Sequence record: MK573636
DNA from: Escherichia phage vB_EcoM_PHB13
Direction: 5' to 3' (one strand)
Length of the DNA: 64,000 nt
In this document: positions 2,031-54,731 of the stretch, piece by piece
Layout of the letters: each line of letters opens with the position of its first letter
How positions within the stretch are numbered: the stretch's first letter is position 1
The notes under the pieces: generated by a model
What the model saw: the letters and a program-made list of their open reading frames with translations, nothing else
Told to the model about the DNA's origin: nothing
Database searches by the model: none
Made by a program: the position numbers and the translations under genes

Positions 2031-3854
2031 ATGTCTGAATTTTTGCTGTTAGATGATCGCGCTCACTGTCTTAAGAGACCTTCAATGTACATCGGGTCAA
2101 CTACTTATGAATCACATAATCGTTTCCTATTTGGAAAATGGACCAAAGTTTCATACGTTCCCGGTCTAGTTAAAATTATTGATGAAATTATCGACAACTC
2201 TGTAGACGAGGCGATCCGCACTAATTTTGAGTACGCTAATGTTATTAGTGTGGATATAAAAGATAACATTGTGTCAGTAACAGATAATGGTCGCGGTATT
2301 CCGCAACATATTGTTACGACGCCAGAAGGGAAACAGATTCCACAACCAGTTGCTGCATGGACACGAGCTAAAGCAGGGTCTAACTTTGATGATACAAATC
2401 GTGTTACTATGGGTATGAATGGGATCGGAAGCGCGCTCACATCATTTTTCTCGTCCTGGTTTACTGGTGTGACGTGTGACGGAGAGAATGAACTGACCGT
2501 TCAATGTACCAATGGTGCAGAAAATATTAGCTGGTCATCCAAGCCGTCAAAACTGAAAGGAACTAAGGTTACGTTCTGCCCCGATTTCGATCATTTTGAA
2601 GGTATGATCATGTCACAAGAAATTTCAGATGTGATTTGCGACCGAATGTATTCATTGAGTGTAATCTTTCCTAAGATCACGTTTAAATTTAACGGCAAAA
2701 AGATAACCAGCAAGTTCAAGGATTATGCTAAACTATACAATGATGATCCGTTTGTCATCGAGGATAAAAACTTCTCACTTGCCCTAGTTCCTGCGGTCGA
2801 GGGAGAAGGTTTTAAATCAGTATCCTTTGCTAATGGTCTGTTTACCAAAAACGGGGGAACACACGTAGACTACGTGACAGATGATCTTTGTGAAGAGATT
2901 GTAAAACGAATCAAGAAAGAATATAAGGTTGATGTTACTAAAGCTGCGGTTAAGTCTGGATTGACCTGTATTCTTATTGTTCGTGAATTGCCAAACCTCC
3001 GTTTTGATTCACAGACAAAAGAACGATTGACTAATCCAACTGGTGATATCAAGCGTCATATTGATCTTGATTTTAAAAAGCTGGCTAAAGTCATTGCGAA
3101 GAAAGAAAACATTATCATGCCTATTATTGCTGTAGTCCTGGCACGCAAAGAGGCAGCAGATAAAGCGGCAGCGACTAAGGCAGCAAAGGCAGCAAAACGG
3201 GCTAAGGTAGCAAAACACGTTAAAGCTAACCTTATTGGAACTGACGCAGAAACTACCCTGTTTTTGACGGAAGGTGATTCCGCGATCAACTATCTGATCT
3301 CTGTACGTGATCAAGATTTACATGGCGGTTTCCCATTGCGAGGTAAAACTCTTACAACATGGGAACAACCGGAGGCAAAGATCGTTAAGAACGCCGAAAT
3401 TTTTAACATCATGGCTATCACTGGTTTGCAATTTGGTGTTGATGCATTGGAAGTTATGCAATACAAAAATATTGCGATTATGACTGACGCGGATACCGAC
3501 GGGATCGGGTCTATTAAACCTAGTCTGATCTCCTTCTTTGCACGTTGGCCTGAATTGTTCGAAGATGGACGAATCCGGTTTATCAAAACGCCTATTATCA
3601 TTGCTGAACCAAAGAAAGGTGATGATGTTCGATGGTATTATGACCTAGAAGATTTCGAGAACGACCGAGATAATATCAAAGGTTACAACATTCGATATAT
3701 CAAAGGTTTAGCATCGCTCACAGAATCAGACTATCATCGCGTGATCAACGATCCTGTCATGGAGATCATCACGTTACCGGAAAACTATAAAGAGCTATTC
3801 GATTTGCTCTATAGTGAAGATGCAGATCAGCGCAAAATTTGGATGCAATCATAA
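2031..3854 (+). CDS. 39: DNA topoisomerase II large subunit, fused gp39+gp60 equivalent (607 aa)
   Basis: N-terminal GyrB-like ATPase region matches T4 gp39; C-terminal IAIMTDADTDGIGSI...RIWMQS matches T4 gp60; one uninterrupted ORF. Confidence 0.9.
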   Translation: MSEFLLLDDRAHCLKRPSMYIGSTTYESHNRFLFGKWTKVSYVPGLVKIIDEIIDNSVDEAIRTNFEYANVISVDIKDNIVSVTDNGRGIPQHIVTTPEGKQIPQPVAAWTRAKAGSNFDDTNRVTMGMNGIGSALTSFFSSWFTGVTCDGENELTVQCTNGAENISWSSKPSKLKGTKVTFCPDFDHFEGMIMSQEISDVICDRMYSLSVIFPKITFKFNGKKITSKFKDYAKLYNDDPFVIEDKNFSLALVPAVEGEGFKSVSFANGLFTKNGGTHVDYVTDDLCEEIVKRIKKEYKVDVTKAAVKSGLTCILIVRELPNLRFDSQTKERLTNPTGDIKRHIDLDFKKLAKVIAKKENIIMPIIAVVLARKEAADKAAATKAAKAAKRAKVAKHVKANLIGTDAETTLFLTEGDSAINYLISVRDQDLHGGFPLRGKTLTTWEQPEAKIVKNAEIFNIMAITGLQFGVDALEVMQYKNIAIMTDADTDGIGSIKPSLISFFARWPELFEDGRIRFIKTPIIIAEPKKGDDVRWYYDLEDFENDRDNIKGYNIRYIKGLASLTESDYHRVINDPVMEIITLPENYKELFDLLYSEDADQRKIWMQS

Positions 3855-42741: not shown

Positions 42742-43248
42742 ATGTTGTCACAAACTTACATGCAGATCGCCTATCTAATCGCAAAGAACTCTAAATGCGT
42801 TTCGTGGAAGGTAGGCGCACTGATCGAAAAAGACGGGCGAATCATTTCTACTGGATTTAACGGCACTCCAGCAGGGCAAGTAAATTGTATCTGTCATGCA
42901 CATAAAAGCGGTTGGCTGGATGATGACGGCAAAATGATCTCAGAAAAACGACCAGAGCATAGTGCATGGTCACAGAAAAACGAGATCCACGCTGAATTAA
43001 ATGCTATTTTGTTTGCTGCCCGTAGCGGTGTATCGATTGAAGGCGCTAGTATGTGGTGTACTGCTTCACCGTGTCCAGATTGCGCTAAAGCAATTGCAAA
43101 CAGTGGAATTAAACATTTATACTATTGCGACACATATGATCGAAATGGTGGGCGTGATTGGGCTGATATTCTGAATAATGCAGATATTACGATCACGCGT
43201 ATTCCAAAAGCATTATTGACTGATTTGAAGGGTATTGATAATGACTGA
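42742..43248 (+). CDS. cd: dCMP deaminase
   Basis: HAELNAILFAA...C.ASPCPDCAKAI are cytidine/dCMP deaminase zinc motifs; position as in T4. Confidence 0.85.
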   Translation: MLSQTYMQIAYLIAKNSKCVSWKVGALIEKDGRIISTGFNGTPAGQVNCICHAHKSGWLDDDGKMISEKRPEHSAWSQKNEIHAELNAILFAARSGVSIEGASMWCTASPCPDCAKAIANSGIKHLYYCDTYDRNGGRDWADILNNADITITRIPKALLTDLKGIDND

Positions 43249-43561
43249 ACAAGTTGATAATATCGCACTTCGTGAAGCACTAAAGAAAATGTTTTCGGTC
43301 GGTACTCACTCTTTGCAGTTTACTAAGAAAGATGGTACTGTCCGTGAGATGATCGCCACGCGAGATCCGGCACTGATGCCATTTGAAACATACGAAAAAT
43401 GGTTAGTTCCTAATGTTGAAAAACCGCGTAAAGAATCAGAAACATCTTTGCCAGTATATGAAATTGCAGTTGAAGGTTTCCGTAGTTTTGGGCTTGATAG
43501 TCTGATTAATGTAGACGGGCTGACTCCAGCGCAGATCGTCGAAATTTACGGTGGCAGTTGA
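43235..43561 (+). CDS. hypothetical protein (108 aa)
   Basis: ORF overlapping the cd stop. Confidence 0.5.
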   Translation: MIMTEQVDNIALREALKKMFSVGTHSLQFTKKDGTVREMIATRDPALMPFETYEKWLVPNVEKPRKESETSLPVYEIAVEGFRSFGLDSLINVDGLTPAQIVEIYGGS

Positions 43562-43563
43562 CA

Positions 43564-44175
43564 ATGGAAACAAAAGATGATAATATCGTATTACCAGCGC
43601 CGGAAGAATGGAGACAAGCTGTAGGTTATCCGTGGTATGAAATCTCTAATTATGGTAGATTGAGATCTATTGACCGAAGTATCGAATTTTATAGAGAAGT
43701 TTCTCCCGGTAATATTAAGCTCGTAAAACAAAAACGTGCTGGTAAAATAATAAAACCAATTTTAGACCGATATGGATATTATTATTCAACATTGTCAAAA
43801 CAAAAAGACAATGGTAAAATCTCAGTTAAAGCCGAAAAGATACATCGACTTGTAGCAAATGCATTTCTAGGAGACGTTACCGGACTTGAGGTTAATCACA
43901 TCAATGGTGTAAAAACCTGCAATTATGTGTGGAATCTAGAAATAGTAACCTTACTAGAAAATATGAGACATTCATTTAGAACTGGACTCAATAACAATGT
44001 CGGTGAAAACCACTCACGGGCAAAACTGACAAATGCGCAAGTCGAAGAAATAATGCGGCTTAAAGGAAAAGTTAAGAAGCAAATTATAGCTGATATGTTT
44101 AATGTTTCTTATTGTTGTATAGCGCAAATACATTCCGGTCTGCGGAGAAATCCAAAGGTCGCGAAATATAAATAA
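43564..44175 (+). CDS. HNH homing endonuclease-like protein with C-terminal HTH
   Basis: YPWYEISNYGRLRS (NUMOD4-like), HRLVANAF...VNHINGVKTCNYVWNLE (HNH) and a C-terminal HTH-like region. Confidence 0.7.
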   Translation: METKDDNIVLPAPEEWRQAVGYPWYEISNYGRLRSIDRSIEFYREVSPGNIKLVKQKRAGKIIKPILDRYGYYYSTLSKQKDNGKISVKAEKIHRLVANAFLGDVTGLEVNHINGVKTCNYVWNLEIVTLLENMRHSFRTGLNNNVGENHSRAKLTNAQVEEIMRLKGKVKKQIIADMFNVSYCCIAQIHSGLRRNPKVAKYK

Positions 44176-44546: not shown

Positions 44547-44574
44547 GGCGGGAAATAATCCCGCCTATATTTTG
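44547..44574 (+). terminator. rho-independent terminator after gene 31
   Basis: Hairpin GGCGGGA-AATAA-TCCCGCC followed by TATATTTTGG. Confidence 0.6.
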
Positions 44575-44617: not shown

Positions 44618-44782
44618 ATGAAAACTATGAATGTAAACATCCACGAAATCCATACCGAAGTATTCACCGAAGAAGACCAGTTTGGTGTATGGGTAAATCC
44701 TCATTCGATTACTATCGATATTCCTAATGACGATTATGATCCGTTCTCTCTGATTAGCGAGATTAGTTTCAATGACTTCTGA
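44618..44782 (+). CDS. hypothetical protein (54 aa)
   Basis: MKTMNVNIHEIHTEVFTEEDQF...; not in the ORF track. Confidence 0.4.
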   Translation: MKTMNVNIHEIHTEVFTEEDQFGVWVNPHSITIDIPNDDYDPFSLISEISFNDF

Positions 44783-45251
44783 AATTGATATCTATGCGGG
44801 TGGACCTTATCCATCGGGTGAATTGAGTAATTTCAATAAAAGACCATTCCGTCTATTTGGTTGCGATATTAACAGCACAGAAGGATTTTTACAGGGGCTA
44901 AGATTTAAGAACCCTCAGAGACAAAGAGAAATCTTTTTGATGCATGGTGGCAAAGCAAAAAGAACCGGAAGAACTGAAAAGATTGAGAATCACATGTTAT
45001 ATTTTCAGGGTCGCCCGATTCATCGAATGAGTGAGCATTATTACAAACTGGTACATCTGGCATTTGTTACGATGGCACGGAATAACCCAGAATTTTGTAA
45101 AGCATTACTCTCGACCGGAAATAAGAAATTACGTCATAGTATAGGTGGAACTGATCCGTTAAAGACTATATTGACTGAATCGGAATTTTGTAGTATCCTC
45201 AATGATATTCGTGAACGTTTAACAAAACGAGGTGAAAATGTCAATTCTTAA
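44772..45251 (+). CDS. NADAR-like (YbiA/DUF1768-like) protein
   Basis: GELSNFNKRPFRLFGCDINSTEGFLQGLRF resembles the NADAR signature (...SNF...F...G..F.S.EH.YQA.KF); tentative. Confidence 0.45.
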   Translation: MTSEIDIYAGGPYPSGELSNFNKRPFRLFGCDINSTEGFLQGLRFKNPQRQREIFLMHGGKAKRTGRTEKIENHMLYFQGRPIHRMSEHYYKLVHLAFVTMARNNPEFCKALLSTGNKKLRHSIGGTDPLKTILTESEFCSILNDIRERLTKRGENVNS

Positions 45252-46734
45252 TATCATTAATCAGCTTGCAGCAACAGACAAAACATCGCTGAAAGAAAAG
45301 ATCCTGAAAGAATCTGCAAGCAATGAAACGCTGAAAGAATGCTTTTATCTGGCATATTGCAAACAGGTTACGTTTGGCGTAAAGAAATACGATAAACCAT
45401 CGCGTTATTCGTCTGTATTGTCTTTATCCGGTGCATTACAGGTCTTTAAAAATAAACTTGCCACGCGTCAAGTAACTGGTAACGCAGCATTACAGCTAGT
45501 TACCGATACTCTGACTTGCTTGTCAGAAGATGATGCTAAAGTTGCAATGATGGTCCTGAATCGTGATCTGGAATGTGGTTGTTCCGCTACCACTGCAAAC
45601 AAGGTATGGAAGAAACTGATCCCCCAGCAACCGTGTCACCTTGCATCGTCATGTTCTGATAAGACTATTGCTAATATCAAGTATCCGGCGTATGCACAAC
45701 TTAAAAGCGATGGCGCTCGTGGTATGGCTGATATTGACGGGGAAACATTAGCAATCTATACCCGTTCAGGTAATACCTATCAGGGACTTGATGATTTGTT
45801 TGCGGTTTTAGAGCGTCTACGAGGCCGTGGAATTGTTCTAGATGGCGAATTGGTATATATGCCTACCCTTTCGCAAACACCAGCGCAGAACTTCGTTGAG
45901 AGCATTTATGATGGTACTCTGTCATGGATATTTGAAGAAGAGGAAATGCCATTAACGCCAGTAGCGGAAGCAGTAAAAGAATCCGTTGTTGCAGATCGTC
46001 AGACCGGAAATGGTATCCTCAACAAATCACTGAAAGGAACTATTCCAAAAGAAGAAGCCCAATGTATTGTTTACACTGTCTGGGATGTTATCGACCGTGA
46101 TGTGTATTACGGAAACGAGAAAGCAACGAAGCAATATAAAGATCGATTCGAAGAACTAAAACAGATTGTTGAAGAACTTAACGATCCTCGTGTTCAGATA
46201 ATCGAAAACACTGTAGTTAACAATATAGATGAAGCTCGCGAAGTATATCATCGCTATGTAAACATGGGCTTAGAAGGTATTATCCTTAAAAATTTACATG
46301 GTGTATTTGAAGATCGTCGCAGTAAAGATCAGGTTAAATTTAAAGAAGTGATTGACTTCGACGCGGAAATTGTTGATGTATATCCGCATAGTAAAGACCC
46401 TAATAAGGTAGGCGGTTTTACTGTCCGTAGTGCGTGCGGACGAATGATGACTAACACCGGATCGGGATTGACTGACACCACAACCGAAAAAGGTGATGAT
46501 GGTATTGAACGTGTAATTCCGTTCGATCGTCGAAATGAACTCGACCGAGAAATGTTATGGGCTGACCGTCATAACCTGATTGGAAAAGTCATTGAGATGA
46601 CATGCAACGGGTATATCCGCAGCAAATCACGTAAAGAAGATGAACCGGAGTTCTCTTTATTTCTCCCGATCATCAAACGTATTCGCTACGACAAGACCAC
46701 TGCAAATACAGTAAAAGAGGTATTCGATGTGTGA
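45232..46734 (+). CDS. 30: ATP-dependent DNA ligase
   Basis: ...AYAQLKSDGARG (adenylation lysine motif)...VLDGELVY...EGIILKN...KFKEVIDFD... matches T4 gp30 (487 aa). Confidence 0.9.
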   Translation: MKMSILNIINQLAATDKTSLKEKILKESASNETLKECFYLAYCKQVTFGVKKYDKPSRYSSVLSLSGALQVFKNKLATRQVTGNAALQLVTDTLTCLSEDDAKVAMMVLNRDLECGCSATTANKVWKKLIPQQPCHLASSCSDKTIANIKYPAYAQLKSDGARGMADIDGETLAIYTRSGNTYQGLDDLFAVLERLRGRGIVLDGELVYMPTLSQTPAQNFVESIYDGTLSWIFEEEEMPLTPVAEAVKESVVADRQTGNGILNKSLKGTIPKEEAQCIVYTVWDVIDRDVYYGNEKATKQYKDRFEELKQIVEELNDPRVQIIENTVVNNIDEAREVYHRYVNMGLEGIILKNLHGVFEDRRSKDQVKFKEVIDFDAEIVDVYPHSKDPNKVGGFTVRSACGRMMTNTGSGLTDTTTEKGDDGIERVIPFDRRNELDREMLWADRHNLIGKVIEMTCNGYIRSKSRKEDEPEFSLFLPIIKRIRYDKTTANTVKEVFDV

Positions 46735-47200
46735 TAATGAAGGGGCGAAAGCCCCTAAACCTAAAAAATTGTCAAAGAAAGAGCAACGCCAGATCCTGAA
46801 AATGAAATATGGTGGACGTTGTGCCTATTGTGGCGAGGAACTAGGGGATCGCTGGCACGCAGACCACATCAAACCAGTATTGCGACGCTCAAAGGTAGTC
46901 TATGATGAAAATGGACGAATTGCCCGTAATGATGATGGATCGTGGAAGTATAAGGTTGTAGGAATGCATAAACCGGAACATGATATACTTGATAACATGA
47001 ATCCGGCGTGTGTGCAATGCAATCTTTATAAAAGCTGTATGGGCTTAGAATACTGGCGTAAGTTTATACGCGAGAACTTCCAGAAGTACATTCAGCGAAA
47101 TATGGGGTTGCGAGCGGCTAAACGCTTTGGCTTGCTGTCAATTCATGACCAGCCAGTAGAATTTTATTTCGAAAAGTACGAGCGCGAAAATAAGGAGTAA
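46727..47200 (+). CDS. HNH endonuclease-like protein
   Basis: CAYCGEE...WHADHIKP...NMNPACVQCNLYK is an HNH motif; true start may be downstream at MKYGG given the hairpin at 46743. Confidence 0.6.
   Translation: MCDNEGAKAPKPKKLSKKEQRQILKMKYGGRCAYCGEELGDRWHADHIKPVLRRSKVVYDENGRIARNDDGSWKYKVVGMHKPEHDILDNMNPACVQCNLYKSCMGLEYWRKFIRENFQKYIQRNMGLRAAKRFGLLSIHDQPVEFYFEKYERENKE
46743..46756 (+). other. GNRA-tetraloop hairpin just after the ligase stop
   Basis: GGGGC-GAAA-GCCCC with no T-run; lies in the annotated 5' end of the next ORF. Confidence 0.45.
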
Positions 47201-53882: not shown

Positions 53883-54211
53883 TGGGATTGTTTAAGTATT
53901 CGCTAACGTCAAATTACGATAAACAAGGTCATTGCATCAGTTGCCCTGATTGTCGTAGCCATAACATCGAAAGCAAGATCACCGATCATATTGATGGACT
54001 TTGGTCGCCAGCAAGCGAGATAGAATACTATTGCGCTGATTGTGGAATTGTAGTAGCATATTGGGCATACGGATCATATGATCCTTACTTCCAGATGGGA
54101 GAGCGTTCAATCCCTGCTCTTATCTGGAGAATTAAGAACAATATCCGCCATTCATGGGATGAGTTCTTAAAAGATATTGATTTACGTGATGATCCATTCA
54201 GGAGACTATAA
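53879..54211 (+). CDS. zinc-ribbon protein (110 aa)
   Basis: CISCPDC ... CADCG: four-Cys zinc ribbon; start overlaps the previous stop (ATGA). Confidence 0.5.
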   Translation: MMGLFKYSLTSNYDKQGHCISCPDCRSHNIESKITDHIDGLWSPASEIEYYCADCGIVVAYWAYGSYDPYFQMGERSIPALIWRIKNNIRHSWDEFLKDIDLRDDPFRRL

Positions 54212-54212
54212 C

Positions 54213-54731
54213 ATGAACCGTTTGACGCCTAAACGCCGTTACTATACCAATACTAAAAACTTTGTCATCTCTGTTTATGAGGCGTGGTTAGAAGATGGCT
54301 ATATCAACATGAACCCAGATTACCAGCGTCCTTTGGTATGGGACACCGAAAACAAACGTATGTTTATCGAAAACCTGATTAATGATTTTCCGGTTGGTGC
54401 TATCGCAATGGCTAAGATTGATGATGGCTCTCGCTATGAGATCGAAATCGTGGACGGTAAACAGCGTTTAAACGCAATATTCTCCTTTATGAAAGATGAG
54501 TTTAGCATTGCTGGTAATGATGATTCTATGTTGTATTACAGTGATTTTACGCCAGCAGAAAAGCGACGTTTTCGCAATCTCGGACTACCCGCGATCATGA
54601 TGGAAGAGAGCACACGAGAAGATCGATTAGAATATTTCTACAAAACAAACTTTTTCGGTGTGCCTCAATCAGAAGATCATCGCCAGCATGTGATTGCATT
54701 ATTGCAAGATGAGCAATTAAAAAATAACTAA
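54213..54731 (+). CDS. DUF262 / ParB-like nuclease-domain protein (172 aa)
   Basis: NPDYQRPLVW...FIENLINDFPVGAI...EIVDGKQRLNAI matches the DUF262 hallmarks (YQR...W, DGQQR-like); ATG 54213 after GGAGA. Confidence 0.55.
   Translation: MNRLTPKRRYYTNTKNFVISVYEAWLEDGYINMNPDYQRPLVWDTENKRMFIENLINDFPVGAIAMAKIDDGSRYEIEIVDGKQRLNAIFSFMKDEFSIAGNDDSMLYYSDFTPAEKRRFRNLGLPAIMMEESTREDRLEYFYKTNFFGVPQSEDHRQHVIALLQDEQLKNN

Follow-up and report, generated by a model that had tools for sequence, protein, structure and literature searches.

The gene at 44772-45251 of the window analyzed here (the whole 64,000-nucleotide stretch of DNA from Escherichia phage vB_EcoM_PHB13) is the Krischvirus ortholog of T4 gp30.3/AdfN and encodes a minimal single-domain protein of NADAR fold with predicted ADP-ribosylglycohydrolase activity. 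This protein quite probably acts by the AdfN-type mechanism, that is, by removing from guanine in phage DNA the ADP-ribose installed by the toxin DarT1. The direct basis for this reading comprises family membership, fold, conserved catalytic positions, synteny and purifying selection, and the enzymatic activity and anti-DarTG1 function would be those of the T4 ortholog, from which they are transferred by analogy.

T4 gene 30.3 was recognized as a phage NADAR on bioinformatic grounds in 2012 (as cited in PMC11825919 and PMC11543638). Its product was later reported to remove guanine-ADP-ribose (G-ADPr) from DNA in vitro (Cihlova et al., 2024; PMC11125620) and was retested in 2026 (PMC12945103). 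Johannesman et al. (2025; PMC11825919) renamed the protein AdfN (anti-DarT factor NADAR) and reported that it is necessary and sufficient for the resistance of T-even phages to the toxin-antitoxin defence DarTG1, that it strips DarT1-made ADP-ribose from DNA, that it is ineffective against DarTG2, which modifies thymine, that its function is impaired by the substitutions E36A and K43A, and that the RB69 allele, naturally truncated and devoid of the C-terminal helix, is defective. Full function of AdfN-T4 is confined to T-even infection, which suggests that another phage factor assists it, and the protein cannot replace DarG1 in uninfected cells (PMC11825919). The DarTG1 assays covered the phages Bas35-47, T2, T4, T6 and RB69, with no Krischvirus among them (PMC11825919), and both activity on G-ADPr DNA and protection from DarTG1 have been shown for the T4 and T2 alleles only (PMC11825919, PMC11125620, PMC12945103); the phage studied here, being a Krischvirus, lies outside the Tevenvirinae used in those assays. 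Independently, a HIDEN-SEQ transposon screen found that T4 requires 30.3/adfN only when DarTG1 is present (conditional essentiality), the gene being non-essential on K-12.

The features of the region are collected in Table 1. The adfN gene is an ATG-initiated open reading frame (ORF) of 159 codons, preceded by an ORF of 54 amino acids and followed by the DNA ligase gene, with start and stop codons overlapping throughout this series. The last 14 nucleotides of adfN overlap the ligase gene from its ATG at 45238, a start shared with the RefSeq record of KFS-EC, and a GAGGT motif lies four bases 5' of this ATG. The ligase ORF is 41% identical to the T4 ligase (tblastn, E 8e-113). The 54-aa ORF gave no match in the Pfam scan; its position is kept in relatives, it is annotated as a CDS in KFS-EC, and a 54-aa gene occupies the same place in the divergent locus L004. 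Upstream of it, a hairpin with a 7-bp stem, six of its pairs G-C (GGCGGGAAATAATCCCGCC followed by TATATTTTGG), probably marks the boundary of the unit formed by the 54-aa ORF, adfN and the ligase gene; it is a consensus match only, and site counts for the region are no higher than those of shuffled sequences. A sigma-70 promoter scan of the region returned 12 sites where 12.5 were expected, that is, no excess, and no promoter was assigned. Fifty-nine phage records match the region at 95-99% identity, and in 55 of them the match spans 80% of the query or more. They come from Krischvirus phages that infect E. coli and Shigella (RB49/ECD7-like, family Straboviridae); vB_EcoM_G37-3 matches best, with 99.0% identity. 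In the Krischvirus records examined the adfN ortholog is labelled "hypothetical protein".

Table 1. Features of the adfN region and of other parts of the window (positions in the 64,000-nucleotide stretch; aa, amino acids).
Feature	Position	Strand	Description or basis
Small ORF	43235-43561	+	
ORF with NUMOD4 and HNH_3 domains	43558-44175	+	HNH endonuclease
Terminator-like GC-rich hairpin and T-run	44547-44565	+	after gene 31 homolog, before 54-aa ORF
54-aa ORF, function unknown	44618-44782	+	5' of adfN, stop overlaps adfN start; ATGACTTCTGA
adfN / gene 30.3 ortholog	44772-45251	+	159-aa single-domain phage-type NADAR, Pfam PF08010
Active-site motif S35-x-E37-G-F-L-Q-x-L-R44	44874-44903	+	alignment to T4 AdfN; hhalign to YbiA TSEHYFQAQK
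His122 codon (CAT)	45135-45137	+	last beta-strand (E119-121 in model), within KLRHSIG
C-terminal alpha-helix, residues 136-157	45177-45242	+	starts inside conserved TILTxxEF motif (132-139)
ATP-dependent DNA ligase, gene 30 ortholog	45238-46734	+	Pfam DNA_ligase_A_M, E 2.8e-22
HNH endonuclease ORF	46727-47200	+	overlaps ligase 3' end
184-aa ORF with GmrSD_N (DUF262) domain	54177-54731	+	restriction-endonuclease N-terminal domain, Pfam E 5e-20
Alt-like ADP-ribosyltransferase, 683 aa	55085-57136	+	Pfam ADPrib_exo_Tox, E 5e-9
Second ADP-ribosyltransferase, 274 aa	57215-58039	+	Pfam ADPrib_exo_Tox, E 3.5e-17; adjacent to Alt-like ORF

The gene order cd - 31 - ... - 30.3 - ... - 30 is common to T4 and Krischvirus. 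In the window adfN adjoins and overlaps the ligase gene, whereas in T4 genes 30.2 and 30.1 lie between the two, and the contact is thus explained by the absence of 30.2 and 30.1. Indeed, tblastn with T4 30.1, 30.2 and 30.4-30.9 (T4 locus L002, 1723-5058), taken as candidate AdfN cofactors, found no homolog anywhere in the 64-kb window, 30.3 and 30 alone being retained from this block. A nearby 30.2 homolog as the AdfN cofactor was therefore rejected for this phage, and it follows that AdfN cannot universally depend on 30.2 as a cofactor encoded close by. The block containing gene 31, adfN and the ligase gene is flanked by two HNH endonuclease ORFs. The divergent relative L004 lacks the upstream one, as probably do those Krischvirus records whose match is split in two (83-84% coverage), a pattern consistent with the insertion of a mobile homing endonuclease. 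For the small ORF at the left end of the region, the positional counterpart in L004, which lies at 3101-3409 and is flanked by cd and gene 31, has a precomputed match to WYL_2 (PF10902).

Profile searches place the protein in the gp30.3 family far above threshold: it matches Pfam PF08010 (Phage_30_3, 'Bacteriophage protein GP30.3') with 130.6 bits (E 4.6e-38; the cutoff is 36 bits), its residues 13-148 aligning to positions 2-138 of the 138 in the profile, and PHROGs phrog_652 with E 2e-44. Against the T4 protein, taken from the T4 record (L002:3498-3956), identity is 38% from residue 3 to the last residue of T4 gp30.3 (E 6e-30). Both are bare NADAR cores of similar size (159 aa here, 152 aa in T4, the difference being seven extra C-terminal residues) that share the Pfam family, the catalytic Glu, the diagnostic His and the C-terminal helix; they differ in that Arg44 of the window protein stands in place of T4 Lys43. 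The canonical NADAR profile PF08719 scores 15.9 bits (E 0.016), below its cutoff of 35.1, while other PF08010 members reach 21-27 bits on it; the NCBIfam model for anti-phage NADARs (DS32_2) gives 14.5 bits against a cutoff of 240, so that membership in that equivalog is ruled out. These weak NADAR-type matches, found in three libraries, are accounted for by the fact that Pfam keeps the gp30.3 clade as a family of its own. PADLOC returned no match for the protein, which is unsurprising if the gene serves counter-defence and not defence.

Homologs occur in 1,509 phage records. A word-indexed search yielded just seven proteins, and the true size of the family required an exhaustive profile search, which gave 1,632 clusters at 50% identity; the PF08010 family is thus much broader than the description 'T4-like phage protein' implies. 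Metagenomic members include PF08010 domains fused to metallophosphoesterase, NT5C 5'-nucleotidase, alpha/beta-hydrolase or BspA-type LRRs, as well as tandem PF08010 domains in which the second copy is degenerate and has lost the catalytic Glu (examples of fusions and tandems from the exhaustive search: P0013, P0014, P0026, P0121, P0153, P0015, P0029, P0031). The window gene is under purifying selection: comparison with the 67%-identical ortholog in L004 gave dN/dS ~0.12, with dS ~1.8, a value at which synonymous sites are saturated. A chance ORF was rejected on the basis of the Pfam and PHROG matches, the wide occurrence of homologs and this ratio, and pseudogenization of the kind represented by the RB69 frameshift was likewise rejected, as the ORF is full length, the C-terminal helix is intact and dN/dS is 0.12.

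The protein adopts a NADAR fold in the structural model. AlphaFold2, supplied with an alignment (A2) of 59 single-domain homologs drawn from the exhaustive profile search, produced a model with mean pLDDT 95.7 and pTM 0.90, in which the helical core and small flanking sheets of the YbiA fold are present and the C-terminal helix (assigned by DSSP) is complete. Foldseek against the PDB retrieved YbiA (E 3e-6) and 8bau (E 2e-3), all other matches having E > 3, and a search of a viral structure library placed gp30.3-type phage proteins first (TM 0.87-0.94) and, after them, dozens of proteins with an annotated NADAR domain. Comparison of the family profile with YbiA by hhalign gave 93.7% probability (E 1.9e-7), pairing GELSNF...STEGFLQGLRF with GDFSNF...TSEHYFQAQKF of YbiA. 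A weak match to DltA (7vhv, E 0.002) in a single-sequence search of PDB sequences was considered spurious, since the profile search ranks YbiA first and the fold searches find NADARs only. The first-pass annotation, made from the DNA letters, had described a 159-aa protein upstream of the ligase gene and had tentatively placed it among the NADARs because of an N-terminal pattern reminiscent of NADAR/YbiA domains. The ORF and its quoted sequence are exact, the quoted stretch is the very one that hhalign sets on the YbiA motifs, and the assignment is borne out by PF08010, by the predicted structure and by orthology to T4 AdfN. The check that it proposed, a hit to the NADAR profile, fails at the curated threshold: PF08719 stays below it, and the relationship is recovered in the profile comparison with YbiA.

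The window protein has every motif that is near-invariant across a set of 156 full-length family domains (L18-S-N20, S35-x-E37-G-F-L-Q41, Q51, R85, H122 and T132-I-L-T-x-x-E-F139). Glu37 occupies the position of T4 E36, a ligand of the distal ribose, and is Glu in 151 of the 156; at position 122 the count for His is 149, and hhalign sets this residue on the Glu of YbiA KLVE. The residue of the last strand distinguishes the groups of the superfamily, being His in the phage NADAR clade, Glu in YbiA and Asp in DarG1-type enzymes (PMC11125620, PMC11543638, PMC12945103). Judged from the alignment, Arg44 is the sole unusual feature of the window protein. It lies at the position of T4 K43, the phosphate-coordinating Lys whose counterparts are K50 of PnNADAR and K95 of E. 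coli C7 NADAR (PMC11543638), in a column that holds Lys in 147 homologs and Arg in seven. Arg with both Glu and His intact is found in the Krischvirus clade (the window protein, P0001 and the 67%-identical P0002) and also in P0134 and P0140, which are ~40% identical to the window protein and to each other; the remaining two cases are degenerate second domains in which the Glu is lost as well.

The exchange of Lys for Arg is conservative and is not guaranteed to be neutral. In the work of Schuller et al. (2023; PMC11543638), C7 NADAR K95R hydrolysed guanine-ADPr in vitro and failed to rescue cells from DarT1, and because of this loss of rescue the in vivo efficiency of the Arg44 protein is uncertain. 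Decay of the gene is argued against by dN/dS ~0.12 over saturated synonymous sites together with retention of the codon AGA at position 44 in both the window gene and the L004 ortholog.

Other NADAR systems differ in ways that place the window protein apart from them. DarG1-type NADARs (the BC4488 family, with Geobacter lovleyi NADAR, 8bat, and E. coli C7 NADAR) carry an N-terminal extension that the window protein lacks (137 of 219 residues aligned) and have the catalytic Asp in the last strand where the latter has His; their gene stands next to darT1, whereas the window gene is an orphan in a lytic phage, with the 54-aa ORF and the ligase gene as neighbours. E. coli YbiA (2b3w) shows ~20% identity with the window protein, in which the family-defining Glu is replaced by His122; it is a host enzyme of the LexA regulon linked to riboflavin and rescues cells from DarT1 inefficiently (PMC11125620). 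AdfN-Bas32 (T5-like) and AdfN-Bas60 (Vequintavirinae) are likewise phage-encoded orphan NADARs that remove G-ADPr and counter DarTG1; they differ in belonging to other NADAR clades, acquired independently, and in needing no T-even cofactor (PMC11825919). They escape BLAST with AdfN-T4 as query (PMC11825919).

In the proposed mechanism, host DarT1 would ADP-ribosylate guanine (N2) in phage DNA and thereby block replication. AdfN would then bind the ADP-ribose, whose distal ribose would lie between Glu37 and His122 and whose diphosphate would touch Arg44 (a position held by Lys in most homologs), and would hydrolyse the N-glycosidic bond to restore unmodified guanine, after which the phage could replicate in DarTG1-carrying E. 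coli. The identity of just 38% to the tested T4 protein, the Arg at the phosphate-binding position, the PF08719 score below threshold and the apparent need of AdfN-T4 for a T-even factor weigh against this reading. One departure from it keeps the chemistry and changes or broadens the target, which would be ADP-ribose attached to RNA, on guanine or some other base, or to DNA by a toxin different from the DarT1 studied so far, with the Lys-to-Arg change as a retuning. All tested NADAR families, that of T4 included, also remove G-ADPr from RNA (PMC12945103), Johannesman et al. suggest that some counter-defences may detoxify undiscovered systems that ADP-ribosylate DNA or RNA (PMC11825919), and Arg44, rare as it is, has been fixed and maintained across a synonymous-saturated divergence. 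This explanation is nevertheless unlikely, as positive evidence for another target is lacking, the enzymes listed as reversing C-ADPr are of the NADAR and YbiA types and not phage NADARs (PMC12945103), and a conservative Lys-to-Arg change left G-ADPr hydrolysis in vitro intact in C7 NADAR (PMC11543638). The protein might also inhibit another defence by binding ADP-ribose without catalysis, as a NADAR-type protein of T5 is reported to do with Retron-Eco1 (Carabias 2024, as cited by Johannesman et al.; PMC11825919), and the binding of ADP-ribose would survive an Arg at the phosphate site. Strict retention of the catalytic Glu and His under purifying selection, the impairment of the T4 ortholog by E36A, which indicates a need for catalysis, and the placement of the T5-type NADAR in a different clade (PMC11825919) make such a role highly improbable.

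The first-pass annotation had offered two functional settings, a link to the two ADP-ribosyltransferases of the phage itself and the countering of host ADP-ribosylating defences. Both transferases are present as ORFs with ADPrib_exo_Tox domains ~10 kb downstream of adfN, and T4 too has alt just past gene 30; reversal or editing by the window protein of the modifications made by these Alt-like enzymes could be imagined. This linkage is ordinary T4-like synteny and not a specific co-variation, PF08010 is widespread outside T4-like phages and in unrelated fusions, and T4 adfN is dispensable on K-12 and essential only with DarTG1 (HIDEN-SEQ). Moreover, Alt and Mod enzymes modify protein arginines. 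The characterized NADAR substrates are, by contrast, N-glycosidic base adducts or riboflavin intermediates (PMC11125620, PMC11543638, PMC12945103). The proposal is thus very unlikely, and found no support here; it is unsupported rather than refuted, because the NADAR literature cited here reports no assay of NADARs on Arg-ADPr proteins. Just 5' of the Alt-like ORF lies the ORF with a GmrSD_N domain, a defence-type domain in a lytic phage. A housekeeping N-glycosidase acting on riboflavin-pathway intermediates, as YbiA does, would fit the presence of E. coli YbiA among the best sequence and structure matches in the PDB; it is exceedingly improbable given that the protein has His in place of the YbiA-defining Glu of the last strand, groups with phage gp30.3 and not with the YbiA family, and would serve no evident need in a lytic phage. 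The second setting, the countering of a host defence, is the one that gains support, through the action of the T4 ortholog on DarTG1.

The family, fold, chemistry and biological role of AdfN have already been published (bioinformatics in 2012, experiments in 2023-2026), and little of what is described here is new in these respects. A shift in the substrate or partner requirement of Krischvirus AdfN with Arg44 (the product of another DarT-like toxin, G-ADPr in RNA, or independence from, or dependence on, a different phage cofactor) is improbable; if it were true, comparison of Arg44 and Lys44 forms could help to explain the context-specificity of AdfN-T4. In any case the natural Lys-to-Arg variant provides a ready-made test of the weight of the phosphate-binding residue in vivo. 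The practical value of the result lies in annotation, as a "hypothetical protein" becomes an AdfN/gp30.3-type NADAR encoded by a probable anti-DarTG1 counter-defence gene, and better annotation of this kind helps in predicting whether E. coli strains with DarTG1 fall within the host range of therapeutic T4-like phages.
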